Positions 22,615 through 50,083 of a DNA stretch of 64,000 bases are shown here, piece after piece. The position numbers and the translations under genes were made by a program. Origin of the DNA: a bacterium (GTDB lineage Bacteria > SAR324 > NAC60-12); contig CBDDTI010000747.1 of assembly GCA_965233585.1 (NCBI GenBank), positions 960,001-1,024,000 of the forward strand, given 5' to 3'. How positions within the stretch are numbered: the stretch's first letter is position 1; every line of letters starts with the position of its first letter. The notes under the pieces are model-generated. The model made no database searches and was not told the DNA's origin. It saw nothing but the letters and a program-made list of their open reading frames with translations.

Positions 22615-22981
22615 CAGAAGTGGAGTTTGAGACAGGAAAGGCAAATTCTGAATCCAAAACATGCTGACGAAGCCTTCTTTGAAACCAGAACAAAAAAACG
22701 ATGCTACACAGCACAGACAAGACAATCAGCATGAGCGTTCCAGATGAATGAAATCCACACAAAAACTTCGCATTATACTTTGAAAAAGCATCTTGTGTCA
22801 ATTTGATTCAAACGTTAACTTGATTTAAAACCCAGTTTCAAAAGTGTCTGGGATATTGATTAACCAAGTATGTTTTTTTAATCCAAAAATAGAAGTAGAA
22901 ATCTTGGGAATGGTGTTTGAAAACAAAGGAAGCAGAACACTACCTTTGTTTGAAAAACGGAATCTCAAAAAACAAAAGAGA

Positions 22982-23062
22982 GATTGCGTGTCAAGGTGGC
23001 AAAATCCTCCCGTCACTTGAGTGCTTGACACGGAATCCCAAAAAAGAGTGAAAACAGAATGA
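22982..23062. repeat. REP/dRS3-like hairpin cluster 1
   Basis: GATTGCGTGTCAAG half-site plus GTCACTTGAGTGCTTGACACGGAATC. Confidence 0.75.
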
Positions 23063-23068
23063 CAAAAC

Positions 23069-23350
23069 TTAATAAAATTTGCTTAACATGACGCCTAGCA
23101 TGACGAGGTTCACAGCTAAAATCATGCCTAACACCCAGCGAGTTGAGTCTATTTTAGAATCAAGTCTTTCTATTTTGGCATTGACTTCTATTTTGATATT
23201 TTCAACGTCTGCCTTAGTTGCTATTTGGTCTTTCAGAGCATGGTTGAGTGTTTTATCTAAGGTCAAAGCATGGGCTTCTGCTTGCTTTTGTTCTACGCCT
23301 GCATCAATCAGTAAACGAGCATACTCTAATGTGTTAATGGCAACGTTCAT
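23069..23350 (-). CDS. DUF1640/CCDC90-like membrane-anchored coiled-coil protein, copy 1 (divergent head)
   Basis: INTLEYARLL..AG..QAEA head, IATKAD neck, C-terminal TM; start MNVAIN at 23350. Confidence 0.8.
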   Translation of the reverse strand: MNVAINTLEYARLLIDAGVEQKQAEAHALTLDKTLNHALKDQIATKADVENIKIEVNAKIERLDSKIDSTRWVLGMILAVNLVMLGVMLSKFY

Positions 23351-23472
23351 TGGTCTTTGGTTGAGAAATGGTTTTAAAGGAGCCATCTTAACAAAAACGT
23401 CATGATGAATCAAACCTTGATGTATGCAGGAAGTGTAGCGAAAGAAATAAGAATGACTTAAACACAAGCCTG

Positions 23473-23590
23473 CAAACTCCTCCCGTCATTCCGTGCTTGA
23501 CACGGAATCTAAAAAACGAGTGAAAACAGAATGAAACGAAGGGAGATTGCGGGTCAAGGTGAGCAATGACTGACACAAGCCCGCAATGAC
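23473..23590. repeat. REP/dRS3-like hairpin cluster 2
   Basis: GTCATTCCGTGCTTGACACGGAATC at 23485; GATTGCGGGTCAAGGTGAGCAATGAC at 23545. Confidence 0.85.
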
Positions 23591-23639
23591 GAAAGGCGAG
23601 GTGGTTTTTTACAGAAGATGAGTTGACGTGTAGCTGAAT

Positions 23640-24995
23640 TTAGGGACCAAATTCCCAAACATCGTTTTTCTTGCCAGCATCAAATCCTCCTAGCACCCAG
23701 ATTTTGTTATTGAACACGATGCTTCTGTGAAACATACGAGCAGACCAACTTGCTGAAGCTGTGCTTTGAGTCCAATTCTTGCCATCAGAAGAACTCCAGA
23801 CATCGTTTTTCCTGCCACCATCAAGTCCTCCTAGCATCCAGATTTTGTTATTGAACACGGCGCTTGTGTGATACTGACGAGCAGACCAACTTGCTGAAGC
23901 TGTGCTTTGAGTCCAATTCTTACCATCAGAAGAACTCCAGACATCGTTTTTATTGCCACCATCAGAACCTCCCATGACCCAGATTTTGTTATTGAACACG
24001 ACGCTTGTGTGTCCAGCACGAGCTGCCCAACTTGCTGAAGAGGTTTCTTCTGTCCAAGTCTTGCCATCAGAAGAACTCCAGACATCGTTTTTGTTACCAC
24101 CATCAGAACCTCCTATGACCCAGATTTTGTTATTGAACGCAACGCTTGCGTGGGAATCCCTACCAGACCAACCTGCTGAAGAGGTTTCTTCTGTCCAATT
24201 CTTGCCGTCAGAAGAACTCCAAACATCATCTTCCCTGCCACCATCATGTCCTCCTATCACCCAGATCTTATTGTTGAACACGATGCTTTTGTGATACGCA
24301 CGAGCAGACCAACCTGCTGAAGCTGTGATTTGAGTCCAATTCTTGCCATCAGCAGAAGACCAGACATCATTTTTTCTGCTACCAGCAAAACCTCCTAGCA
24401 CCCAGATTTTGTTATTGAACACGACACTTGCGTGTTCGTCACGAGCAGACCAACCTGCTGAAGAGGCAACACGTTTCCAAGTGTGTTTGGAAACGTCAAG
24501 TCCGTTACCACCTGTAGGCGTGTTCTGGTTTCCAGAAACCACTGTAAAATCCCAGTTTGATTTTTTGCTCAAGATTTTGAACTTGAGTTGTCCCTTGCCT
24601 GCTGTGACTCCTGTCAACTTCAACTTAGCTTGAAACTCTTTTTTTCTAGGTAATTTATAGTTTAAAGTTCCGCTTTGTCCGACTGTTTCTTCACCTGAGA
24701 CGACCAGCTTCAAGGAAGCCAAACTTTCATCATAGGCAATGTTGAGACGTTTACCTTGGTAAATGGAGGTGGCAGTGCAGGTGAGGTTGGCAACCAGTTC
24801 TTGACCTGTTGCCAAAGAATTGCCAGAGGAGACCTCGCAAGTAGCGTTACCTTTTTCGGTTTTTTCATCTTCCTGTTCTTCAGCAGGTGGCACACAACCT
24901 ACCAAGACCAGAAGTGCCAAGAAAACGATTATTTTGTCATAAAAAGAGTTTCTTCTGACAAAAGAGTTTTGAATGGATTTGATTTGTTCTAACAT
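23640..24995 (-). CDS. Kelch-repeat (six-blade beta-propeller) lipoprotein, copy 1
   Basis: Lipobox LVGC (Cys34), AGGAGG RBS, six ~47-aa repeats R-x-x-H..KIWVxGG..DVWSSxDGKxW. Confidence 0.9.
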   Translation of the reverse strand: MLEQIKSIQNSFVRRNSFYDKIIVFLALLVLVGCVPPAEEQEDEKTEKGNATCEVSSGNSLATGQELVANLTCTATSIYQGKRLNIAYDESLASLKLVVSGEETVGQSGTLNYKLPRKKEFQAKLKLTGVTAGKGQLKFKILSKKSNWDFTVVSGNQNTPTGGNGLDVSKHTWKRVASSAGWSARDEHASVVFNNKIWVLGGFAGSRKNDVWSSADGKNWTQITASAGWSARAYHKSIVFNNKIWVIGGHDGGREDDVWSSSDGKNWTEETSSAGWSGRDSHASVAFNNKIWVIGGSDGGNKNDVWSSSDGKTWTEETSSASWAARAGHTSVVFNNKIWVMGGSDGGNKNDVWSSSDGKNWTQSTASASWSARQYHTSAVFNNKIWMLGGLDGGRKNDVWSSSDGKNWTQSTASASWSARMFHRSIVFNNKIWVLGGFDAGKKNDVWEFGP

Positions 24996-25047
24996 AAAAA
25001 CCTCCTAAATAATGGTTGATCACAACGAACAAAAAAAGAAGATTAAG

Positions 25048-25077
25048 ATTTTAGCAGACTGTCCAAAACAGTTGCAA
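25048..25077 (-). promoter_or_regulatory. Sigma70-like promoter of Kelch copy 1
   Basis: TTGCAA-18 nt-TAAAAT with TG extension; conserved before all four Kelch genes. Confidence 0.6.
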
Positions 25078-25114
25078 CTCTGAATGTTAAAAACGATGAA
25101 AAAAAAGACTTTTC

Positions 25115-25381
25115 TTAATAAAACTTGCTTAACATCACGCCTAACATGACGACATTCACCGCTAAAATCATACCCAACACCCAGCGAGTTGAGTCTATTT
25201 TGGACTCTACCGAGTCTATTCTTGATGCCACTTTTGCTATGTCTGCTTTGGTTGCAATTTCTTCTTTCAAAGCCTCATTGAGTGTTTGATTCAAAGTGTT
25301 TGCTTGGACTTCCGCTTGTTCTGCTGTGAAGCCTCCTGCAATCAAGGCTTTGGTATATGCAAGGGTGTCTATGGCAATCAT
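25115..25381 (-). CDS. DUF1640/CCDC90-like membrane-anchored coiled-coil protein, copy 2
   Basis: IDTLAYTKALIAGGFTAEQAE head, IATKADI neck, heptads, TM tail. Confidence 0.85.
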   Translation of the reverse strand: MIAIDTLAYTKALIAGGFTAEQAEVQANTLNQTLNEALKEEIATKADIAKVASRIDSVESKIDSTRWVLGMILAVNVVMLGVMLSKFY

Positions 25382-25522
25382 AAGGCTGTCAGTTTGTCAA
25401 GTCTAAAGATGCTATTCTAACACGATTTTCAAAAAAAGAAATAAGCATGACTTGGGCAATCACGAAAAGAAACAGGCGGGTCAGCTTTTGAAATAACGGT
25501 TTTTTGGAAGAAGAAAGTTTGA

Positions 25523-25696
25523 GATTGCGGATCAAGTCCAGCAATGCAGTTTTCAAGGTGAGCAAAATCCTCCTGTCATTTGAGTGCTTGAGGCGGAATC
25601 TATCACCAAACCAAGCACAGATTCCTACATGATTGGATTCCTGTTTTCGCAGGAATGACGGTTGTAGTGAGATTGCGGGTCAAGGTGAGCAATGAC
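25523..25696. repeat. REP/dRS3-like hairpin cluster 3
   Basis: Several GTCATT..AATC / GATT..AATGAC hairpins. Confidence 0.85.
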
Positions 25697-25743
25697 TTAA
25701 TCACAAGCCAGCGGATAACAAAAAGGAAGGTTTGGTTTTGCGT

Positions 25744-25788
25744 AAGAAGAAACCACCCCGCTTGGTCATTCAAGCGAGGTGTTTTTTT
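25744..25788 (-). terminator. Intrinsic terminator of Kelch copy 2 (possibly bidirectional)
   Basis: CACCTCGCTTG-loop-CAAGCGGGGTG then GTTTCTTCTT on minus; T7 on plus. Confidence 0.65.
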
Positions 25789-25817
25789 AGAGAAGATGAA
25801 TTGACGTGCGTCTGAAT

Positions 25818-27182
25818 TTAGGGACCAAATTCCCAAACATCGTTTTTTCTGCTACCAGCATCTCCTCCTAGCACCCAGATTTTGTTGTTGAACACGACGC
25901 TTGTGTGAGCAGCACGAGCAGACCAACCTGCTGAAGAAGTTTCTTTTGTCCAATTCTTACCATCAGAAGAACTCCAGACATCATTTTCCCTGCCACTATT
26001 ATCAACTCCTCCCAGCACCCAAATTTTGTTGTTGAACGCAACGCTTGCGTGAGAATTCCTACCAGACCAACCTGAAGAAGTCTCTTTTGTCCAATTCTTA
26101 CCATCAGAAGAACTCCAGACATCGTTTTTTCTGCCACCACCATTTCCTGCTAGCACCCAGATTTTGTGATTGAACACGATGCTTCTGTGATACGCACGAG
26201 CAGACCAACCTGCTGAAGAAGTTTCTTTTGTCCAATTCTTACCATCAGAAGAACTCCAGACATCGTTTTTCATGCCACCAGCAAATCCTCCTAGCACCCA
26301 GATTTTGTGATTGAACACAACGCTTCTGTGTCCAGAACGAGCAGACCAACCTGCTGAAGAAGTTTCTTTTGTCCAATTCTTACCATCAGAAGAACTCCAG
26401 ACATCGTTTTTTCTGCCACCAGCACCTTCTCCTCCTAGCACCCAGATTTTGTTGTTGAACACGACGCTTGTGTGTTCCTCACGAGCAGACCAACCTGCTG
26501 AAGAAGTTTCTTTTGTCCAATTCTTGCCATCAGAAGAACTCCAGACATCGTCTTCGCTTGTAAATCTTCCTATAAATCCTCCTAGCACCCAGATTTTGTT
26601 GCTGAACACAACGCTTGTGTGAGAATCACGAGCAGACCAACTTGCTGAAGAGGCGACCCGTTTCCAAGTGTATTTGGAAATGTCAAGTCCGTCGCCACCT
26701 GCAGGTGAGTTCTGGCTTCCATTGACCACTGTAAAATTCCAGTTTGATTTTTTGCTCAAAATCTTAAACTTGAGCTGTCCCTTGCCTGTTGTGACTCCTG
26801 TTAACCTCAGTTTGGCTTGAAATTCTTCTTGTTTAGGTAAGGTGTAGGTGAGTTTTCCACTTTGCCCCGTTGTTTCTTCACCTGAGACGACCAGCTTCAA
26901 GGAAGTCAAACTTTCATCGTAAGTGATGTTTAATTTTTTGCCTTGATAAATTGATGTGGTAGTGCAAGTGAAATTGGCAACCAATTCTTGACCTGTTGAG
27001 ACAGAACTGTTTGAGCTGACCTCGCACGTGGCTTCACCTTTTTTGGTTTCTCCATCTTCCTGTTCTTCAGCAGGAGGTGTGCAACCCGCTAAGACCAGAA
27101 GTGTCAAGAAAACGATTATCTTGTCATAAAAAGCCCCCCCCCTGACAGCAGGGTTTTGAATGGATTTGAGTTGTTCTAGCAT
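25818..27182 (-). CDS. Kelch-repeat lipoprotein, copy 2
   Basis: LAGC lipobox; six blades. Confidence 0.9.
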   Translation of the reverse strand: MLEQLKSIQNPAVRGGAFYDKIIVFLTLLVLAGCTPPAEEQEDGETKKGEATCEVSSNSSVSTGQELVANFTCTTTSIYQGKKLNITYDESLTSLKLVVSGEETTGQSGKLTYTLPKQEEFQAKLRLTGVTTGKGQLKFKILSKKSNWNFTVVNGSQNSPAGGDGLDISKYTWKRVASSASWSARDSHTSVVFSNKIWVLGGFIGRFTSEDDVWSSSDGKNWTKETSSAGWSAREEHTSVVFNNKIWVLGGEGAGGRKNDVWSSSDGKNWTKETSSAGWSARSGHRSVVFNHKIWVLGGFAGGMKNDVWSSSDGKNWTKETSSAGWSARAYHRSIVFNHKIWVLAGNGGGRKNDVWSSSDGKNWTKETSSGWSGRNSHASVAFNNKIWVLGGVDNSGRENDVWSSSDGKNWTKETSSAGWSARAAHTSVVFNNKIWVLGGDAGSRKNDVWEFGP

Positions 27183-27243
27183 AAAAATCTCCTAAATCAT
27201 GGTTAAATCAGAATGAAAAAAAAGAAATAAAAGAGAGTTAAGG

Positions 27244-27273
27244 ATTTTAGCAGACCTTGAAAAACAAATGCAA
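27244..27273 (-). promoter_or_regulatory. Sigma70-like promoter of Kelch copy 2
   Basis: TTGCAT-18 nt-TAAAAT, extended -10. Confidence 0.6.
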
Positions 27274-27342
27274 CTTTTAAAATCGTTTTTTTTGATTATT
27301 TTTGATGAGTTGAGCAAAAAAGAAAGTCTGTAAACGTCATCA

Positions 27343-27542
27343 GTCATTCTGTGCCTGACACGGAATCCATCTTAAACCAAGCATGGATTCCTACATGACT
27401 GGATTCCTGCTTTCGCAGGAATGATAAAAAACAAGCCTACAACGAAGAAAAGAAAAAGGGAAGAAGGAGAAAAAGAACTGAGATTGCGGGTCAAGCCCGC
27501 AATGACGGTTGTAGAGAGATTGCGGGTAAGGTGAGCAATGAC
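27343..27542. repeat. REP/dRS3-like hairpin cluster 4
   Basis: Inverted hairpin doublet plus GATTGCGGGTCAAGCCCGCAATGAC at 27482. Confidence 0.85.
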
Positions 27543-27593
27543 TTAAATACAAGCCATTGGGTGAGGAAAAAGAAGAAGGGAAAAAGACTTTTC

Positions 27594-27881
27594 TTAATAA
27601 AACTTGCTTAACATCACGCCCAACATGACGACATTCACAGCTAAAATCATGCCTAATACCCAGCGAGTTGAGTCTATCTTAGATTCTACCAAGTCTATTT
27701 TGGACTCAACCGAGTCTATTCTTGATTCTACTTTTGCTATGTCTGCTTGGGTTGCAATTTCTTCTTTCAAAGACTCATTGAGTGTTTGATTCAAAGTGTT
27801 TGCTTGGACTTCTGCTTGTTCTGCTGTGAAGCCTCCTGCAATCAAGGCTTTGGTATATGCAAGGGTGTCTATGGCAATCAT
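27594..27881 (-). CDS. DUF1640/CCDC90-like protein, copy 3 (one extra heptad)
   Basis: 95 aa; IDSVESK-IDLVESK-IDST stalk. Confidence 0.85.
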   Translation of the reverse strand: MIAIDTLAYTKALIAGGFTAEQAEVQANTLNQTLNESLKEEIATQADIAKVESRIDSVESKIDLVESKIDSTRWVLGMILAVNVVMLGVMLSKFY

Positions 27882-28013
27882 AAAGCTGTCAGTTTGTCAA
27901 GTCTAAAGACGCTATTTTAACACGATTCTCAAAAAAAGAAATCGGCATGACTTGAGCAAAAAATCAAAGAAACAAGCGGGTCAGTTTTTGAAAAATGAGA
28001 AGTTTAAGACCTG

Positions 28014-28352
28014 AGGGTCAAGGTGAGCAATGACAGGGGAATGAGAAAAAGAGCAAACCGTCATTCCGTGCCTGACACGGAATCCATCGTCAACATCGCA
28101 TGGATTCTTGCTTTCGCAGGAATGACAAAGAAAAGAGTCAGAAATGACCAAATGCAAGACTGCAATCTCTCTTAGTCATTCGGTGCTTGACACGGAATCT
28201 ATCTTAAACCAAGCATGGATTCCTGCTTTCGCAGGAATGACAAAAGTTGTCATTTGGTGCTTGACACGGAGTCTCAAAAAATAAAAGAGAGATTGCGGGT
28301 CAAGCCCGCAATGACGGTTGTATAGAGATTGCGGGTCAAGGTCAGCAATGAC
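28014..28352. repeat. REP/dRS3-like hairpin cluster 5
   Basis: Multiple hairpins, e.g. GATTCCTGCTTTCGCAGGAATGAC at 28218. Confidence 0.9.
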
Positions 28353-28426
28353 GGAAGAACGGGGTGACCAATGACCAAAACACAAGCCATTGGGTGGTGA
28401 AAAGGAAGAAGGGAAAAAGACTTTTC

Positions 28427-28693
28427 TTAATAAAACTTGCTTAACATCACGCCTAACATGACAACATTCACAGCTAAAATCATGCCTAATACCCAGCGAG
28501 TTGAGTCTATCTTAGACTCTACCGAGTCTATTCTTGATTCTACTTTTGCAATGTCCGCTTTGGTTGCAATTTCTTCTCTCAAAGCCTTATTGAGTGTTTG
28601 ATTCAAGGTGTTTGCTTGGACTTCTGCTTGTTCTGCTGTAAAGCCTCCTGCAATCAAGGCTTTGGTATATGCAAGGGTGTCTATGGCAATCAT
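28427..28693 (-). CDS. DUF1640/CCDC90-like protein, copy 4
   Basis: 88 aa, near-identical to copy 2. Confidence 0.85.
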   Translation of the reverse strand: MIAIDTLAYTKALIAGGFTAEQAEVQANTLNQTLNKALREEIATKADIAKVESRIDSVESKIDSTRWVLGMILAVNVVMLGVMLSKFY

Positions 28694-28835
28694 AAGGCTG
28701 TCAATTTGTCAAGTCTAAAGATGCTATTTTAACACGATTCTCAAAAAAGGAAATCAGCATGACTTGAACAATCACGAAGAGAATCAAGCAGACGTTTCTT
28801 TTGAAATAATGGTTTTTTGGAAGAAGAAAGTTTGA

Positions 28836-29178
28836 GATTGCGGGTTAAACACGCAATGACATTTTTCAAGATGAGCAAAGTCCTGCCGTCATTCCGTGCT
28901 TCTGTTAGTCATTCCGTGCCTGACACGGAATCTATCACCAAACCAAGCACAGATTCCTGCTTTCGCAGAAATGACCAAATGCAAGACTGCAAACTTCACC
29001 GGTCATTCAGTGCTTGACACGGAATCCATCGTCAACATCGCATGGATTCCTGTTTTCGCAGGAATGACAACAGCGGTCGTTCCGTGCTTGACATGGAGTC
29101 TCAAAAAATAAAAGAGAGATTGCGGGTCAAGCCCGCAATGACGGTTGTAGTGAGATTGTGGGTTAAACCCGCAATGAC
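28836..29178. repeat. REP/dRS3-like hairpin cluster 6
   Basis: Multiple hairpins in alternating orientation. Confidence 0.9.
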
Positions 29179-29221
29179 TTAGAATCCAGCAAGTGATAAA
29201 AAGGAAGATTTGGTTTTGCGT

Positions 29222-29266
29222 AAGAAGAAACAACCCCGCTTGGTCATTCAAGCGAGGTGTTTTTTT
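29222..29266 (-). terminator. Intrinsic terminator of Kelch copy 3
   Basis: Near-identical hairpin to 25744-25788. Confidence 0.6.
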
Positions 29267-29295
29267 AGAGAAGATGAATTGACGTGCGTCTGAAT

Positions 29296-30624
29296 TTAGG
29301 GACCAAATTCCCAAACATCGTTTTTCGTGCCACCATCACTTCCTCCTAGCACCCAGATTTTGTCATTGAACACGATGCTTCTGTGAAACCAACGAGCAGA
29401 CCAACCTGCTGAAGAAGCTTCTTTTGTCCAATTCTTGCCATCAGAAGAACTCCAGACATCGTTTTCTCTGCTACCATCACCAAGTCCTCCTATGACCCAG
29501 ATTTTGTCATTGAACACGACGCTTGTGTGATACTGACGAACACCCCAACCTGCTGAAGAGGTTTCTTTTGTCCAATTCTTGCCATCAGAAGAACTCCAGA
29601 CATTGTTTGTGTTGCCACCATCAGTACCTCCCATGACCCAGATTTTGTGATTGAACACAACGCTTGTGTGTCCAGAACGACCAGACCAATCTGCTGCAGA
29701 AGTTTCTTTTGTCCAATTCTTACCATCAGAAGAACTCCAGACATCGTTTTTGTTACTACCTCCTATGACCCAGATTTTGTGATTGAACACGACGCTTGTG
29801 TGTCCAGCACGAGCAGACCAACCTGCTGCAGAAGTTTCTTTTGTCCAATTCTTGCCATCAGAAGAACTCCAGACATCGTTTTTACTGTTACCATCAAAAC
29901 CTCCTATGACCCAGATTTTGTGATTGAACACGACGTTTGTGTGATGCCAACGAGCAGACCAACCTGCTGAAGAAGTTTCTTTTGTCCAATTCTTGCCATC
30001 AGAAGAACTCCAGACATCGTTTTTCGTGCCACCATCATCAAAACCTCCTATGACCCAGATTTTGCCATTGAACACGACGCTTGTGTGTGTAGAACGAGCA
30101 GACCAACCTGCTGAAGAGGTGACTTTTTTCCAAGTGTATTTGGAAATGTCAAGTCCGCTTCCATTAATCACTGTAAAAGCCCAGTTTGATTTTTTACTCA
30201 AGATTTTGAATTGCAGTTGACCTTTGCCTGCTGTGACTCCTGTGAGCTTCAGCTTGGCTTGAAATTCTTTTTTTCTAGGTAAAATGTAAGACAACTTTCC
30301 ACTTTGTCCAACTGTTTCTTTCTCTCCAACGACCAGCTTCAAAGACGTCAAACTTTCGTCATAGTCAATGTTGAGACGTTTGCCTTGATAAATTGTTGAT
30401 GTGGTGCAGGTGAGGTTGGCAACTAATTCTTGACCTGTTGAGACAGAACTGCCAGAGGAAACCTCGCACGTGGCATTACCTTTTTCGGTTTCTCCATCTT
30501 CCTGTTCTTCAGCAGGAGGCGTGCAACCTGCCAAGACCAGAAGTGTCAAGAAAACGATTATCTTGTCATAAAAAGCCCCCCCCCTGACAACAGGGTTTTG
30601 AATGGATTTGATTTGTTCCAACAT
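29296..30624 (-). CDS. Kelch-repeat lipoprotein, copy 3
   Basis: LAGC lipobox; six blades; shorter linker. Confidence 0.9.
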   Translation of the reverse strand: MLEQIKSIQNPVVRGGAFYDKIIVFLTLLVLAGCTPPAEEQEDGETEKGNATCEVSSGSSVSTGQELVANLTCTTSTIYQGKRLNIDYDESLTSLKLVVGEKETVGQSGKLSYILPRKKEFQAKLKLTGVTAGKGQLQFKILSKKSNWAFTVINGSGLDISKYTWKKVTSSAGWSARSTHTSVVFNGKIWVIGGFDDGGTKNDVWSSSDGKNWTKETSSAGWSARWHHTNVVFNHKIWVIGGFDGNSKNDVWSSSDGKNWTKETSAAGWSARAGHTSVVFNHKIWVIGGSNKNDVWSSSDGKNWTKETSAADWSGRSGHTSVVFNHKIWVMGGTDGGNTNNVWSSSDGKNWTKETSSAGWGVRQYHTSVVFNDKIWVIGGLGDGSRENDVWSSSDGKNWTKEASSAGWSARWFHRSIVFNDKIWVLGGSDGGTKNDVWEFGP

Positions 30625-30685
30625 AAAAAACTCCTAAATCATGGTTAAATCAGAATGAAAAAAAAGAAATAAACAAGAGTTAAGG

Positions 30686-30715
30686 ATTTTAGCAGACCTT
30701 TAAAAATAGATGCAA
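30686..30715 (-). promoter_or_regulatory. Sigma70-like promoter of Kelch copy 3
   Basis: TTGCAT-18 nt-TAAAAT, extended -10. Confidence 0.6.
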
Positions 30716-30831
30716 CTTGAAATTATAATTTTTGGTTTGTGAGAGATTTAAGAGTGGCTTGTATGGCATTGGGTTTAAGAGTCATGTTATTCTTTTAATC
30801 GTCATTTTAAAATTTATTTAAGGAGTCTGTG

Positions 30832-31374
30832 ATGTTAAGTTCCATAGAGATTGCCAAAGAAATCATAGCAAGGAGTCAACCTGATTTGGGTCAGGTCATC
30901 TCCAATTTGAAGTTACAAAAGTTGCTTTATTATGCTCAAGGATTTTCATTGGCGATAGAGAAAAAGCCGCTCTTTTTAGAGGGTTTAGAAGCGTGGGAAT
31001 TGGGACCTGTCGTGCCAGATGTCTATCATCATTTTAAGAAATATGGACAATCTGCCATCTTGATTGATTATAAACCACAAAAGGTTGACCCGATTCTTGA
31101 TGCCATCAAAGAGACTTACATGCAGATTGACGCAATCAAGTTATTTCAAATGACTCACGAAGAATCACCTTGGCTGGACTCTTACCAAGAGGGTCAAAAT
31201 ACTCCCATCACCCATGAGTCTTTGCTAAATTTTTTTCAAAGTGAGTTTGCAATGAAAGATAAGTTTGTTGAGGTTTATATTGAACTCAAAGAAAAGCCTG
31301 TGTCTGTTGTTTTGCCAAACTATAAACCCGACTCTGAACGTATGAAAAAGATAGAATCTTATTTTGGAATATAA
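30832..31374 (+). CDS. Panacea-domain (DUF4065/SocA/GepA-like) antitoxin
   Basis: ISNLKLQKLLYYAQG, EAWELGPVVPDVY, THEESPW; AAGGAG RBS before ATG 30832. Confidence 0.9.
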   Translation: MLSSIEIAKEIIARSQPDLGQVISNLKLQKLLYYAQGFSLAIEKKPLFLEGLEAWELGPVVPDVYHHFKKYGQSAILIDYKPQKVDPILDAIKETYMQIDAIKLFQMTHEESPWLDSYQEGQNTPITHESLLNFFQSEFAMKDKFVEVYIELKEKPVSVVLPNYKPDSERMKKIESYFGI

Positions 31375-31663
31375 GACATCGCAAGACCATTATCTTTGTA
31401 AAAATGAGGCAAAAGTTTGTAAATTTTACCCACACACAGGAGCATTAGATTTTTTTAATTCTTTACCTGATGAAGAAAAGGATTTGTTATGTGATGTTTT
31501 TTGTTATTTACATCTTAAGTTTCAGTCCTTAAAACAAAGCAAACATTTACAAGCATTAGATACAGACTTGCAAATTTACCAGACAACCTATCAAAAATAT
31601 TGGATTAAGTTCAAGAAAAACCAATCCCTCCCTCTGACAGTCATTGAACTCAAGGCAATTTGA
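31364..31663 (+). CDS. Hypothetical protein, putative toxin partner of the Panacea antitoxin
   Basis: Reads TTG GAA TAT AAG ... TGA on the PLUS strand (track label is wrong); overlaps the antitoxin 3' end by 11 nt. Confidence 0.6.
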   Translation: MEYKTSQDHYLCKNEAKVCKFYPHTGALDFFNSLPDEEKDLLCDVFCYLHLKFQSLKQSKHLQALDTDLQIYQTTYQKYWIKFKKNQSLPLTVIELKAI

Positions 31664-31760
31664 GAGACAATGACAGACAGTTCACAGGTGTTGACGCCTA
31701 ACTCAAGAATAAGAACTCCGCCAACATACTAGCCCAAAAAAGAAAAATGAAAAGAAGAGA

Positions 31761-32388
31761 GATTACGGGTCAAGCCTGCAATGACGGAAGAACAAGGTGA
31801 GCAAAGTCCTGCCGTCATTCCGTGCCTGAAACGGAATCTATCTTAAACCAAGCATGGATTCCTACATGACAGGATTCCTGCTTTCGCTCCGAATGACAAT
31901 AGTTGTCACTTGAGTGCTTGAGGCGGAATCCATCGTCAACATAGCATGGATTCGGAGCTTTTGCAGGAATGACAATAGTTGTCACTTGGGTGCTTGACAC
32001 GGAGTCTCAAAACAAAAGAGAGATTGCGGATCAAGTCCGCAATGACATTTTTCAAGATGAGCAAAATCCTGCCGTCATTCCGTGCCTGACACGGAATCTA
32101 TCGTCAATCAGGGCATAGATTCCTGCTTTCGCAGGAATGACAATAGTTGTCACTTGGGTGCTTGACACGGAGTCTCAAAACAAAAGAGAGATTGCGGATC
32201 AAGTCCGCAATGACATTTTTCAAGATGAGCAAAATCCTGCCGTCATTCCGTGCCTGACACGGAATCTATCACCAAACTAAGCATGGATTCCTAACATGGC
32301 TGGATTCCTGCCCCTGTTTTCACAGGGGTGACGTTCTTTCGCAGGAATGACGGTTGTAGAGAGATTGCGGGTCAAGGTGAGCAACGAC
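31761..32388. repeat. REP/dRS3-like hairpin cluster 7 (largest; includes a perfect 140-bp duplication)
   Basis: More than ten hairpins; 31963-32102 equals 32131-32270. Confidence 0.92.
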
Positions 32389-32460
32389 GATTTTCAAGAT
32401 ATGCTATGACTAAAAGGCAAGCAATCATGTGAAAAAAAGGAAGGTTTGGTTTTGCGTAAG

Positions 32461-32499
32461 AAGAAGCCACCCCGCTTGATCATTCAAGCGAGGTGGTTT
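32461..32499 (-). terminator. Intrinsic terminator of Kelch copy 4
   Basis: CCACCTCGCTTG..CAAGCGGGGTGG then CTTCTT on minus. Confidence 0.6.
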
Positions 32500-32530: not shown

Positions 32531-33898
32531 TTAGGGAGCAACTTCCCAAACATCGTTTTTCCTGCCACCACCAAGACCTCCCATGACCCAGATTTTGTTG
32601 TTGAACGCAACGCTTGTGTGATCACCACGGGCAGACCAACCTGCTGAAGAGGTTTCTTTTGTCCAAGTCTTACCATCAGAAGAACTCCAGACATCGTTTT
32701 TGTCGTCATCATCAACTCCTCCCATGACCCAGATTTTGTTGTTGAACGCAACGCTTGTGTGAGCAGTACGAGCAGACCAACCTGCTGAAGAGGTTTCTTT
32801 TGTCCAAGCCTTACCATCAGAAGAACTCCAGACATCGTTTTTCCTACCACCATCAAATCCTCCTATGACCCAGATTTTGTTACTGAACACGACGCTTGCG
32901 TGTCCATTACGAGCAGACCAACCTGCTGAAGAGGTTTCTTTTGTCCAAGTCTTGCCATCAGAAGAACTCCAGACGTCGTTTTTCCTGCTAGGATCATATC
33001 CTCCTATGACCCAGATTTTGTTATTGAACACGACGCTTGTGTGATACTCACGAGTAGACCAACCTGCTGAGGCAGTTTCTTTTGTCCAAGTCTTACCATC
33101 AGAAGAACTCCAGACATCATTTTTCCTGTTCGATAACAAATCACCATCATATCCTCCTATGACCCAGATTTTGTTATTGAACACGACGCTTGCGTGTCCA
33201 TTACGAGCAGACCAACCTGCTGAGGCAGTTTCTTTTGTCCAAGTCTTGCCATCAGAAGAACTCCAGACGTCGTTTCTCCTGCGACCATCATATCCTCCTA
33301 TGACCCAGATTTTGTTATTGAACACGACGCTTGTGTGATCACCACGGGCAGACCAACCTGCTGAAGAGGCAACCCGTTTCCAAGTTTGTTTGGGAATGTC
33401 AGGTCCGTTGCCACCTGCAGGTGAGTTCTGGTTTCCATTGACCACTGCAAAAGCCCAGTTTGATTTTTTACTCAAGATTTTGAACTTGAGTTGCCCCTTG
33501 CCTGCTTTGACCCCTGTGAGCTTTAGCTTGGCTTGAAATCGTTCTTGTTTGGGCAAGGTGTAGGTCAGTTTTCCGCTTTGCCCAGCTGTTTCTCTGCCCG
33601 ACACGACCAGCTTCAAAGACGTCAAACTTGCATCGTAAGTGATGTTGAGACGTTTACCTTGATAAACAGATGTAGCAGTGCAAGTGAGGTTAGCAACCAA
33701 TTCTTGACCTGTTGTCAAAGAACTGCCAGAGGAGACCTCGCACGTGGCGTTACCCTTCTTCGTCCCTCCCTCCTTATTTTCTTCAGCAGGAGGTGTGCAA
33801 CCTGCTAAGACCAGAAGTGTCAAGAAAACGATTATTTTGTCATAAAAAGCACCACGCCCGACAGCAGGGTTTTGAATGGATTTGATTTGTTCCAACAT
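32531..33898 (-). CDS. Kelch-repeat lipoprotein, copy 4
   Basis: LAGC lipobox; six blades. Confidence 0.9.
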   Translation of the reverse strand: MLEQIKSIQNPAVGRGAFYDKIIVFLTLLVLAGCTPPAEENKEGGTKKGNATCEVSSGSSLTTGQELVANLTCTATSVYQGKRLNITYDASLTSLKLVVSGRETAGQSGKLTYTLPKQERFQAKLKLTGVKAGKGQLKFKILSKKSNWAFAVVNGNQNSPAGGNGPDIPKQTWKRVASSAGWSARGDHTSVVFNNKIWVIGGYDGRRRNDVWSSSDGKTWTKETASAGWSARNGHASVVFNNKIWVIGGYDGDLLSNRKNDVWSSSDGKTWTKETASAGWSTREYHTSVVFNNKIWVIGGYDPSRKNDVWSSSDGKTWTKETSSAGWSARNGHASVVFSNKIWVIGGFDGGRKNDVWSSSDGKAWTKETSSAGWSARTAHTSVAFNNKIWVMGGVDDDDKNDVWSSSDGKTWTKETSSAGWSARGDHTSVAFNNKIWVMGGLGGGRKNDVWEVAP

Positions 33899-47835: not shown

Positions 47836-48252
47836 TTAGTCTAAAAAATCATCTAAATACAAAACATCTATTTCTTCAATAGATTTAAATTGCTTATCAT
47901 TTGTCACGATTGAAGAACAGCCACTTTGTATTGCTGTTGCTATATGAATTGCATCAAAATGTTTGATTCCATACTTTGCTCTGACTTCTGATGATTTAAC
48001 AAGTATATCTCTATTAATTGGAATACTTTCAACTAAAGAATTATAAAAAATCATCTGTATATAAAAGTCTTCCAACTCCTTATTATGATTCATCTTGGGC
48101 TTTACAAGACATTCTGATAAAGTCAACTCACTCGTTGTCACTTGACTACTATTGTTTAGAAAATGATTTGATAAAGTTTGATACTTTTCTATACCTTCCA
48201 CTAAATAAATAAAAATATTTGTATCAAAATACACTCTATTTTGATTTAACAT
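47836..48252 (-). CDS. VapC/PIN-domain toxin, copy 1
   Basis: YFDTN, E, DAIH.ATA, TND acidic PIN motifs. Confidence 0.9.
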   Translation of the reverse strand: MLNQNRVYFDTNIFIYLVEGIEKYQTLSNHFLNNSSQVTTSELTLSECLVKPKMNHNKELEDFYIQMIFYNSLVESIPINRDILVKSSEVRAKYGIKHFDAIHIATAIQSGCSSIVTNDKQFKSIEEIDVLYLDDFLD

Positions 48253-48518
48253 TCTTCTCTTGAATGACGAATGAAAGTATCTACTTCTTCAGCAGTTTCA
48301 AACTCTCTACAATGTTTTGCAATGCCAAACATTGAACGAAGATCAATAGCGACTTTCTCTCTTGGTTGTATCGTTTGGGGTTCTAAGATGATTTTTCCAT
48401 TTTCAGCTCTTGCTTCCAAAGTATCGCCTTCACTAATTCCAATCTCTTTACGAACTGCAACAGGAATTGTAATTTGACATTTTTGTTTCACTTTGACGTA
48501 TGGCATTGCGTTCTCCAT
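48246..48518 (-). CDS. AbrB/MazE-type antitoxin, copy 1
   Basis: QITIP..VR...GI.EGD.L; start may be MPYVKV at 48506. Confidence 0.9.
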   Translation of the reverse strand: MENAMPYVKVKQKCQITIPVAVRKEIGISEGDTLEARAENGKIILEPQTIQPREKVAIDLRSMFGIAKHCREFETAEEVDTFIRHSREEC

Positions 48519-48542
48519 TTTAAGTAAGGGTTAGAAAGTGAG

Positions 48543-48573
48543 ATTTTAGCAGATTCAAATTACATTGTGTCAA
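48543..48573 (-). promoter_or_regulatory. TA promoter, copy 1
   Basis: TTGACA-19 nt-TAAAAT with TG extension; identical in all three modules. Confidence 0.55.
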
Positions 48574-48706
48574 CTTTGTCTTTCTTTTTGTGATTTTGTT
48601 TCTGCTCTTCAGAAAAAGTGCCGAAAAGAATGATTTAGGGCAGGTGGTTTGACTTTGGCCTTTGTTTCTGGAAGGAATCAAGTTGTTTTTCATTTACCTG
48701 ATGATT

Positions 48707-49138
48707 TCAATTTAAAAAATCATCTAAATACAACACGTCTATTTCTTCAATAGATTTGAATTGCCTATCATTCGTCACGATTGAAGAACAACCACTTTGA
48801 ATCGCTGTTGCTATATGAATTGCATCAGGAAGTTTAAAGCTATACTTTGCTTTGATTTCTGATGCTAATATCCATATACCCATATTAGGTTTAACTAACA
48901 ACACATTTTCATTGTCCACAAGAAAATTCAAATAAATTTCTTCTAAAACTTGATCATTTAGCTTTTTAGGCTGAACGAGACACTCTGATATTGTCAATTC
49001 ACTTGTTATAATCTGGTGACCATCTTTGAGTAATGATGAAAAAAATTGATAAATAGAAAATTCATTAATTTCAATTTCTTCTATGACATAAATAAAAATA
49101 TTTGTATCAAAATATATTTTATCGTTCAATGGTTTCAT
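48707..49138 (-). CDS. VapC/PIN-domain toxin, copy 2
   Basis: Same PIN motifs; ATGA overlap with its antitoxin. Confidence 0.9.
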   Translation of the reverse strand: MKPLNDKIYFDTNIFIYVIEEIEINEFSIYQFFSSLLKDGHQIITSELTISECLVQPKKLNDQVLEEIYLNFLVDNENVLLVKPNMGIWILASEIKAKYSFKLPDAIHIATAIQSGCSSIVTNDRQFKSIEEIDVLYLDDFLN

Positions 49139-49404
49139 TCATCTCTCAAACTACGGATATGAATATTCACTTCTTTCTGTGTTTTGAAACTTCTGCAATG
49201 CTTACCAGCACCTATCATTTCAAGTAAGTTCGTTTTTTTCTTTTTTCTTGGTTGTATCGTTTGGGGTTCTAATATGATTTTTCCATTTTCAGCTCTTGCT
49301 TCCAATGTATCGCCTTCGCTGATTCCGACCTCTCTGCGAACGGTAGCAGGAATTGTAATTTGACATTTTTGTTTGACTTTGACATATGGCATTGCGTTCT
49401 CCAT
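49135..49404 (-). CDS. AbrB/MazE-type antitoxin, copy 2
   Basis: Paralog of 48246-48518; track start at 49458 lies inside the promoter. Confidence 0.9.
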   Translation of the reverse strand: MENAMPYVKVKQKCQITIPATVRREVGISEGDTLEARAENGKIILEPQTIQPRKKKKTNLLEMIGAGKHCRSFKTQKEVNIHIRSLRDE

Positions 49405-49427
49405 TTTAAATAAGGTTAGAAAGTGAG

Positions 49428-49458
49428 ATTTTAGCAGATTCAAATTACATTGTGTCAA
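49428..49458 (-). promoter_or_regulatory. TA promoter, copy 2
   Basis: Identical to copy 1. Confidence 0.55.
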
Positions 49459-49645
49459 CTTTGTCTTTCTTTTTGTGATTTTGTTTTTTCTGGTTGAGAA
49501 GTTTCATTCCTTCCCTTGTGGCATAACTGGTTTTGCTAATACACGAGCCAGAAAAGGTGTGAAAAAGAATGATTTAGGGCATGTGGTTTGACTTTGATCT
49601 TTGTTTCTGGAACGAATCTAAATTGTTCTTCATTCACTGATGACG

Positions 49646-50083
49646 TTAGTTTAAAAAATCATCTAAATACAACACACCTACTTCTTGAATAGATTTGAAT
49701 TGTCTATCATTCGTCACGATTGAAGAACAACCACTTTGTATTGCTGTTGCTATATGAATTGTATCAAAAAGTTTAACCTGATAATCTGCTCTAATCTCTG
49801 ACGATTTGATCAAAATTTCTGTACTTATCTGTTGACATTGAACATAGGAATTGAAAAGTATTGCTTGCATATAAACATTTTCTAGGTCTTGGTTTTTATC
49901 TTTTTTAGGTTTAACAAGACACTCTACAATCGTCAAAGTACTAGTCACAATTTGATGATTTCTTCCTTTTAGAACATTAAAAAAATCGCCAGCTAAACTT
50001 TGATATTTTTCTACTCCTTCAAAAACATAGATAAATACATTTGTATCAAAGTATAAAGGTCTATCAAAAAACTTATCTTTCAT
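49646..50083 (-). CDS. VapC/PIN-domain toxin, copy 3
   Basis: YFDTNVFIY, VE, FDTIH, TND. Confidence 0.9.
   Translation of the reverse strand: MKDKFFDRPLYFDTNVFIYVFEGVEKYQSLAGDFFNVLKGRNHQIVTSTLTIVECLVKPKKDKNQDLENVYMQAILFNSYVQCQQISTEILIKSSEIRADYQVKLFDTIHIATAIQSGCSSIVTNDRQFKSIQEVGVLYLDDFLN

Follow-up and report, generated by a model that had tools for sequence, protein, structure and literature searches.

CGTC-tagged hairpin mosaic arrays beside lipoprotein-family genes in a SAR324 bacterium: probable founding by an Ssn-type nuclease and probable later carriage as passengers

What are the interleaved hairpins that occupy the gaps between genes in this SAR324 genome, and how did they multiply? 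We analysed a window of 64,000 nucleotides (the whole stretch of DNA under study), in which positions 22982..32388 carry 42 whole or partial hairpins, in agreement with an earlier note that had estimated about 40 copies by eye. A pairing-blind scan for the tag across 22900-32450 gave 55 matches, 41 of which were judged to be family members, and one further hairpin with a changed tag (27402-27425) lies outside the tag-scan matches. Of these 42 hairpins, 27 have at most four mismatches to a seed, and the strand split is complete, with all 17 A-type copies on the plus strand and all 25 B/C-type copies on the minus strand. The individual copies quoted for each type were found in place (A at 23485; B at 28218 and C at 27482, both minus), as were the GCGGA/TCCGC variant at 32022 (minus) and the spacer arms at 29021 and 32093. 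The arrays alternate with genes (Table 1), among which the four Kelch units are mutually 80-84% identical across 1.5-1.8 kb. The coiled-coil ORF at 23069..23467 is listed as called; its real start is possibly downstream.

Table 1. Hairpin arrays and neighbouring genes, in window coordinates
Feature	Coordinates	Strand	Content or basis
Array I	22982..23037		degenerate C remnant (-), broken-stem A variant (+, 23012)
CCDC90/DUF1640-like coiled-coil gene	23069..23467	-	Pfam PF07798 E 3.9e-4, below cut-off; paralogue family of 30
Array II	23485..23590		A (+, 23485-23509), broken-stem C variant (-, 23545-23570), C half-site
Kelch-repeat protein 1, predicted lipoprotein	23640..24995	-	Pfam Kelch; LxGC near N-terminus by sequence reading
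DUF1640-like small gene	25115..25381	-	paralogue clustering
Array III	25521..25696		degenerate C', A variant (+, 25575), B (-, 25636-25659), C variant (-, 25671-25696)
Kelch-repeat protein 2, predicted lipoprotein	25818..27182	-	Pfam Kelch
Array IV	27343..27542		A (+, 27343), B (-, 27402), C (-, 27482), C variant (-)
DUF1640-like small gene	27594..27881	-	paralogue clustering
Array V	28009..28352		C variant; doublets A>B, A>B, A>C; C variant
DUF1640-like small gene	28427..28693	-	paralogue clustering
Array VI	28836..29178		C; A half-site; doublets A>B, A>B, A>C; C
Kelch-repeat protein 3, predicted lipoprotein	29296..30624	-	Pfam Kelch
SocA/Panacea antitoxin-like gene	30829..31374	+	PF13274 E 2e-16
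Array VII, longest in stretch	31761..32388		14 whole/partial copies, incl. GCGGA/TCCGC at 32022, 32190
Kelch-repeat protein 4, predicted lipoprotein	32531..33898	-	Pfam Kelch

Strict hairpin matches numbered 443 in the whole assembly (433 on bacterial contigs) compared with 13 in one block-shuffled copy, and pairing-blind matches numbered 567 in the six bacterial contigs compared with 1, 3 and 1 in three shuffles. Because shuffled sequence yields so few matches, the hairpins exceed chance expectation: they are real and present in about 500 copies in the genome. All six seed types have an 8-bp stem, with loops of 4 nt in type B and 5 nt in types A, C and D, and 6 nt in a minor C form (37 copies). 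Each position of the GTC tag deviates in at most seven copies per type, and 323 of the 433 strict copies have C or T directly before the tag. A conserved tail follows the hairpin; it reads CCA in 41 of the 63 B copies, and the usual tails in A and C are CTC or CTA. Only 30 of 531 copies fall inside ORFs of at least 150 aa, several of which are spurious. Copies have inserted at new sites, within restriction-modification genes.

These properties place the hairpins in a published repeat class, the CGTC-tagged REPs, of which they are ordinary members. By the published definition (8-9 bp stem; loop of 4 nt in family 1 or 5 nt in families 2-4; tail mostly CCA; Di Nocera 2013, PMC3733652), type B is CGTC-1-like and types A and C are CGTC-2-like. 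The proposed likeness of type B to Neisseria dRS3 holds for the geometry but not for the consensus, which is ATTCCT-N8-AGGAAT here versus ATTCCC-N8-GGGAAT, with one pair changed. The sole, weak Rfam match, to FtrB (32 bits versus a gathering score of 66; E = 0.08), was rejected.

The earlier note had also argued from compensatory changes that structure rather than sequence is recognised. Judged by pair counts, inner stem pairs do covary between subfamilies, but within subfamilies copies decay and broken-stem variants reach about a hundred copies (107, 31 and 24 in the variants counted). Mismatches within types were divided almost evenly between G-T (118) and A-C (111; p = 0.69), indicating decay without strand bias. 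Genome-wide, the claimed covariation of spacer arms failed: among 86 A-B spacers, the quoted fully paired forms account for only 15 (CAT/ATG 11, TAT/ATA 4), while other combinations are equally common or commoner (TAT/ATG 27, TAT/ACA 14, CAT/ATA 11), and in the two-by-two table the tendency is away from pairing (odds ratio 0.375, p = 0.04). That claim reflects a selected pair of examples. Recognition of structure over sequence is unsupported, both for this reason and because sequence is near-invariant at the tag, at the first stem pairs and at the C that follows the stem, broken-stem variants are abundant, and altering the palindrome with the hairpin retained is reported to abolish SsnA activity (Chenal 2025, PMC11893778).

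What did stand was the doublet rule, by which A is followed by an inverted B or C: inverted neighbours pair A with non-A in 225 of 233 cases, and 125 of the 130 head-to-head neighbours combine A with B or C. Other organisms likewise carry type C mainly as one half of a head-to-head heterodimer, exact A1 and D being among its partners, which indicates that the A-C doublet predates this genome. Arrays flanked by paralogues usually differ in length from their counterpart (37 versus 9 that do not), and a search for filled and empty sites returned 56 candidate pairs, none with clean ends or a target duplication. In 94 co-directional gaps, B/C tags lie on the transcribed strand by 73:21, and a terminator scan accepts four C or C' copies that are trailed on the gene strand by T-rich stretches. 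That the hairpins function in RNA, whether by terminating transcription, stabilising mRNA or yielding processed small RNAs, is nevertheless very improbable, given that the orientation bias disappears between non-family genes (14:16), G-T mismatches are not in excess over A-C, a separate, stronger hairpin stands directly behind three Kelch genes, and SsnA is reported not to bind RNA (Chenal 2025, PMC11893778). The loss of bias between non-family genes indicates that paralogue descent accounts for the apparent link to transcription; incidental termination by single copies is possible. A replichore bias was also rejected, because GC skew is too flat and polarity switches between 50-kb windows.

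Hairpins lie within 600 bp of 46 of 73 lipoprotein-family, 19 of 30 DUF1640-like and 22 of 24 DUF3782-like ORFs, and of 105 of 2050 singleton ORFs. This enrichment, the loss of orientation bias between non-family genes and the length differences between paralogous arrays support duplication of the hairpins together with these genes. A Kelch lipoprotein query found 55 matches in this genome versus no more than four in each of 30 relatives, and the first 157 residues of the query also occur without the Kelch part. This expansion and modularity, together with arrays that cluster near lipoprotein genes and vary between paralogous sites, would suit selection that keeps the arrays as recombination hot spots diversifying surface lipoproteins, an idea already put forward for the NIME arrays of Neisseria. 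We regard this as possible but somewhat doubtful, since the same pattern is expected from hitch-hiking with duplicated genes, 27 of the 73 family members have no hairpin inside 600 bp, and paired hairpins were found at none of 15 Kelch loci of relatives; it is compatible with the explanation that we prefer below. It is unlikely that orphaned Ssn-type hairpins have become a NIME-like device for diversification here, in which polarised A/non-A arrays, lacking Ssn or using a substitute nuclease, would drive the duplication of about 70 surface-lipoprotein genes and the shuffling of their domains while copies continue to insert into new genes. If true, the Neisseria arrangement would have a convergent counterpart in a remote lineage, and the genome would provide a natural test of the way in which CGTC repeats multiply.

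Which enzyme could have made the copies? The suggested association with RAYT transposases was not borne out, as no RAYT/IS200 transposase (PF01797, Y1_Tnp) was found in a search whose control matched in 6 of 14 genomes, and CGTC repeats are described as not flanking RAYT genes (Di Nocera 2013, PMC3733652). By analogy, the partner is likely the GIY-YIG single-stranded DNA nuclease Ssn, which binds and cuts such hairpins only as single-stranded DNA, strand-specifically, reading both sequence and stem (Chenal 2025, PMC11893778). At one metagenome locus, a small GIY-YIG ssn-like gene is flanked on both sides by exact type C hairpins, and in a genome of the same family (G015) an ssn-like gene lies between C-like and B-like hairpins, although only 2 of the 135 type C loci examined contain such a gene. 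In G015, the small GIY-YIG proteins share 56-60% identity with the one encoded within an NTS array in a Neisseria gonorrhoeae record, where two stem types alternate on opposite strands, as here. As no NCBIfam model names these proteins, they were identified by this identity and by their flanking hairpins. In favour of the link, the most hairpin-rich relatives, G005 (315) and G015 (201), are also the pair in which ssn matches several times (22 matches in G015); G009 has two fragments. Against it, G018, G019 and G016 show no ssn match despite 55-99 pattern matches, while only 5-10 pattern matches accompany ssn in G025 and G029. Close relatives known from proteins alone have TIM sequences that are 84% and 77% identical.

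In this assembly, which is 92% complete, ssn gave neither a profile match nor a remnant (best E = 0.39 and 4.5 by tblastn, and 0.77 by hmmsearch --max), so that the enzyme link is one of analogy. A GIY-YIG search of the assembly gave 45 matches, with only UvrC in the six bacterial contigs, with the stretch present in pieces in four contig runs from one study, possibly the source, and in no RNA run among those listed. Compared with a relative's ssn gene at 80% likeness, the four runs gave only short pieces at depth 2, too little to weigh on either side. The incompleteness of the assembly, the many identical hairpin copies, the presence of ComEC and DprA, and the report that 137 of the 169 genomes in which SRMs exceed 200 have ssn (Chenal 2025, PMC11893778) speak for an ssn gene in the unassembled part and a system still active that would restrict or steer uptake of hairpin-bearing DNA, as in Neisseria. 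We give this little credence, because the contigs are long (0.6-1.07 Mb) and traverse many arrays, not even a fragment was found (versus the matches in G015 and G009), and conservation of the copies shows no strand bias. That another nuclease, the expanded coiled-coil and PD-(D/E)XK-like family (DUF3782/DUF8196-like), took over the hairpins is extremely unlikely. Nearly all of its members adjoin hairpins (22 of 24), some tandem genes have a hairpin group between each, and Atlas look-alikes bear DUF3782, DUF8196, NERD or Hjc in 12-33% of members, but the flanking orientation is inconsistent and two unrelated gene families share the same neighbourhood. The family was rejected as partner on its neighbourhoods in other genomes, where 17 of 18 homologue loci lack a tagged hairpin and the AT-rich match at the remaining locus does not resemble the family.

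Overall, we consider it likely that these mosaic arrays of CGTC-tagged REPs were founded by an Ssn-type nuclease and have since been enzyme-less passengers alongside lipoprotein-family genes. After binding the hairpin in single-stranded DNA, such a nuclease would nick immediately 5' of its tag; it probably founded and first spread the copies, its gene having been lost, we infer, rather than left unassembled. Later, hairpins would have duplicated and recombined jointly with the adjoining genes, without the enzyme; heterodimers may persist by avoiding long perfect palindromes, and current turnover is presumably ordinary homologous recombination between arrays. The 245 of 531 copies that are identical to a seed point to recent copying, which is in tension with a long-lost enzyme.

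The finding itself is ordinary, because the repeat class (2013) and the nuclease (2025) have already been published. Literature searches returned no Ssn/SRM work beyond Chenal 2025 and, among the matches listed, nothing relevant to SAR324, coral and REP. Cutting by Ssn is reported (Chenal 2025, PMC11893778), and mobilisation by it is putative. For the question of CGTC repeat multiplication, the modest value of this genome lies in its roughly 500 copies, strict polarity rule, natural stem variants that escape the published SRM pattern, insertions into genes whose homologues are free of hairpins, and Neisseria-like arrays by surface lipoproteins in a distant lineage.

Among known systems, the GTAG REPs, REPINs and BIMEs that accompany RAYT resemble these hairpins in forming tagged single-stranded DNA hairpins in doublets and arrays, but the tag here is GTC rather than GTAG and no Y1 transposase was found. 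In E. coli, two hairpin classes alternate (Y versus Z1/Z2), much like the A/non-A alternation here. The resemblance to CGTC-tagged REPs as described by Di Nocera (2013, PMC3733652) extends to the unpaired (C/T)GTC tag, the 8-bp stem starting with A-T, the short unpaired tail, loops of 4 nt (B) or 5 nt (A and C), head-to-head heterodimers, several families per genome, and a mainly intergenic location with some intragenic copies and without RAYT. Differences from that description are the large clusters, common here and rare there except in Neisseria and Wolbachia, the frequent tail-to-tail neighbours, and the A and C tails, mostly CTC here and CCA there; the passages of that paper on which we draw do not mention a SAR324-like lineage. 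NTS/SRM-Ssn systems (Chenal 2025, PMC11893778) share the same tag and the conserved C following the stem, type B being 2-5 letters off the NTS consensus; type C adjoins an ssn-like gene elsewhere, and clusters lie close to surface-protein genes. Unlike those systems, this assembly yielded no ssn, and the published SRM search pattern fits 1 of 433 copies, exact copies being off by 1-4 letters and type D by 6. NIME arrays (Bentley 2007, PMC1797815) differ in that the three stem classes here are none of the dRS3 consensus and in lineage, ours being distant from Neisseria, outside which such arrays were unseen in 2007; no IS110-type recombinase was found here. Both are nonetheless dynamic hairpin arrays with spacer families between, IS elements and other repeats close by, and variable mosaics adjoining surface-protein genes, here expanded surface-lipoprotein paralogues.

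Each hairpin copy quoted in the earlier note was found at the position given there. A pairing-blind tag scan of window positions 22900-32450 returned 55 matches, 41 of which we read as family members, with 14 left out as unrelated words; one further copy carries an altered tag (Table). Across the hairpin stretch (22982..32388), all 17 A-type copies are on the plus strand and all 25 B/C-type copies on the minus strand, forming seven intergenic arrays amid four Kelch-repeat genes, four DUF1640-like small genes and one SocA-like gene. The Kelch-repeat proteins have lipoprotein-like N-termini, and the four Kelch units share 80-84% identity across 1.5-1.8 kb. Terminator-like hairpins distinct from the arrays stand directly behind three Kelch genes, and PIN-domain genes occur elsewhere in the window.

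A strict scan of the 12-Mb assembly (747 contigs) identified 443 hairpins versus 13 in one shuffled copy, with 433 falling within six contigs totalling 2.96 Mb. The hairpins are real and well above chance, and their class is already known. The other 741 contigs (about 9 Mb), which hold 10 strict hairpins, are probably foreign to this bacterium. Among named proteins, those most similar to the triose-phosphate isomerase of the window come from 'Deltaproteobacteria bacterium TL4' (55%) and a SAR324 cluster bacterium (51%), suggesting a lineage that is tentatively SAR324-like. At ≤4 mismatches to six seeds there were 531 copies, 245 of them exact. A second, GTAG-tagged family has 51 copies in the six bacterial contigs and none in the window; 47 lie ≤300 bp from a CGTC hairpin, and a RAYT gene was not found. 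One CRISPR spacer is a palindromic form of type C; neither the assembly nor the fetched loci contain a second copy at ≤1 mismatch.

Hairpin seeds and located features. Copies are out of 531 at ≤4 mismatches; C745-C747 are contigs of the window's assembly and L numbers are fetched loci.
Feature	Location	Copies	Description
Seed A1		143	
Seed A2		116	CCGCA/TGCGG
Seed B		67	
Seed C		156	
Seed C, 6-nt loop		37	
Seed D		12	CTGAA/TTCAG
Further family copy	window 27402-27425		tag altered
Terminator-like hairpins	window 25754-25781, 29233-29258, 32467-32496 (-)		
PIN-domain genes	window 47836-50083		three consecutive
GTAG-tagged hairpin	C746 near 89600		example
DUF3782/DUF8196-like genes (L051)	C746:88540-93393		five tandem coiled-coil + PD-(D/E)XK-like genes, hairpins between each; family of 24
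Res-like fragment (L054)	C747:2919-4091		type III; internal hairpin
Methyltransferase (L055)	C747:107301-109448		type III
Type ISP enzyme gene (L056)	C747:164894-169579		
CRISPR spacer	C745:403044-403070		198-repeat array; type C made perfectly palindromic (complement of tail in place of tag)

The pairing of type A with an inverted non-A holds genome-wide: A is joined with non-A in 225 of 233 inverted neighbours (label permutation, 116 ± 8), and same-direction neighbours share a class in 97 of 113 (56 ± 5), counts that are not independent events because copies are related by duplication. A heterodimer preference has been described and was suggested to avoid long perfect palindromes (Di Nocera et al. 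2013, PMC3733652, available text); for the doublets here, both a two-hairpin fold and a single long stem are possible.

The stem covariation claimed earlier stands only between subfamilies. For 18 hand-chosen copies, 15 of them from the window, 95% of cells were paired, double changes occurred at three of eight pairs, and the covariation score (0.414) was reached by none of 500 shuffles (0.181 ± 0.026); the number of covarying pairs was not above shuffles (274 of 500). This signal stems from a few founder subfamilies, but within subfamilies one-sided changes dominate (336, versus 16 compensatory, of three kinds, and nine other doubles). There, G-T mismatches (118) are as common as A-C mismatches (111; p 0.69), and individual copies thus show no visible strand-specific selection. 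Broken-stem variants have also increased in number, to 107, 31 and 24 copies; their folding energies are about −1.4 to −2.7 kcal/mol, whereas the main seeds reach −7.8 to −9.1. Inner pairs are Watson-Crick at 57-70% among 104 distinct 25-base copies of the assembly and at 89-100% among 35 copies from other contigs, the latter biased by the paired search pattern. Covariation of the spacer arms fails over 86 spacers. Recognition of structure in place of sequence, as the earlier note had proposed, is not supported: the sequence of the outer letters does not vary, so recognition likely needs sequence and stem together.

Insertion of copies at new sites has happened. Restriction-modification genes account for three of 11 long ORFs with internal hairpin matches. 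At a C/A2 doublet, the type III methyltransferase contains 32 residues that are missing from two homologues; the doublet lies in the loop between GGQSTEEG and EIFFN, where the N. gonorrhoeae homologue has an AGCC repeat tract. A second extra stretch (residues 225-242) resembles a GTAG-type hairpin. In the type ISP enzyme gene, two hairpin sites coincide with additional stretches, and at a third the frame changes near residue 1460.

The earlier note linked REP doublets to RAYT transposases; a Y1 transposase was not found in the window's assembly. Other DNA points to ssn, the gene for the small GIY-YIG ssDNA nuclease Ssn. Among the matches listed for the type C pattern in viral and metagenome DNA, 135 loci were fetched. 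Two of these have an ssn-like gene, and in most the type C hairpin faces a different stem head-to-head, with exact A1 and D among the partners. In L133, a metagenome locus, exact type C flanks the ssn-like gene on either side. Seven of 30 relatives have ssn matches. In relatives G005 and G015 the ssn genes sit between tagged hairpins facing inward, one with a C-like hairpin on one side and a B-like on the other, and the small GIY-YIG proteins of G015 share 56-60% identity with an ORF inside an N. gonorrhoeae array of NTS (the Neisseria hairpin of Ssn), in which two stem types alternate on opposite strands. In G015, of the same family, ssn matches number 22; several are intact, many are broken, and most of the fetched ones lie between inverted 26-base hairpins; a recent burst of the cassette there is possible. 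Among the relatives, hairpin matches are highest in G005 (315) and G015 (201), both with ssn. In G018, G019 and G016, with 99, 63 and 55 matches, ssn was not found, whereas ssn is present in G025 and G029 alongside few hairpin matches.

In the window's assembly, a profile search for ssn gave no match, tblastn a best E of 0.39 and 4.5, and unfiltered hmmsearch a best E of 0.77. Of 45 GIY-YIG matches, 44 lie in the 741 probably foreign contigs. Absence of ssn from the genome is likely rather than proven, because assembly completeness is 92%; a hidden ssn gene is an unlikely alternative. A substitute nuclease acting in its place is very improbable.

The likeliest course is that the lineage acquired an ssn cassette, whose tagged hairpins then spread as A/non-A doublets, presumably via ssDNA nicking near the tag; mobilisation by Ssn is a hypothesis also for Chenal et al. 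2025 (PMC11893778, available text). The ssn gene would subsequently have been lost, leaving arrays that today appear to duplicate and recombine with adjoining gene families. ComEC and DprA are present, which would allow an Ssn, were there one, to act on DNA entering the cell.

Using a simple custom ORF caller, we found hairpins ≤600 bp from 46 of 73 lipoprotein-family, 19 of 30 DUF1640-like, 22 of 24 DUF3782-like and 42 of 91 IS1-family ORFs, compared with 105 of 2050 singletons. The 91 IS1-family ORFs, split transposases, are those of the six bacterial contigs. A Kelch query gave 55 matches in the assembly versus ≤4 in any relative. For 37 of 184 arrays, the array at a paralogous site differs in length, and for nine it is of similar length. 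Arrays might be selected recombination hot spots, a possible though doubtful reading that is compatible with cassette entry and loss. In co-directional gaps, B/C tags follow the direction of transcription in 73 of 94 cases; between non-family genes the figure is 14 of 30, a difference that suggests the hairpins were inherited along with duplicated genes. A function of the hairpins in RNA, which the overall bias might suggest, is quite improbable.

In CGTC-tagged REPs the (C/T)GTC tag is unpaired, the stem is 8-9 bp long and begins with A-T, the loop has 4-5 nt and the tail is short. They form head-to-head, often heterologous dimers; CGTC-1 is equated with Neisseria dRS3, and in the available text none was found flanking a RAYT gene (PMC3733652). 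Our hairpins fit these features, with a tail only partly CCA. Neisseria NTS is bound and cut by SsnA as ssDNA only and on the tag strand only; the C after the stem counts most for binding, the three bases preceding it for cutting, and activity is lost when the palindrome is changed, even if the hairpin is preserved (PMC11893778, available text). Type B differs from NTS by 2-5 letters, yet only 1 of 433 copies fits the degenerate pattern of the Ssn-related motif (SRM) in that text. Because the CGTC features are present and type B is near NTS, yet the SRM pattern is so rarely fitted, we class the repeats as CGTC REPs, possibly with an SRM-like mode of action, rather than as SRMs in the formal sense. 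The context and length variation of the arrays are similar to those described in the available text for the NIME arrays of Neisseria (PMC1797815).
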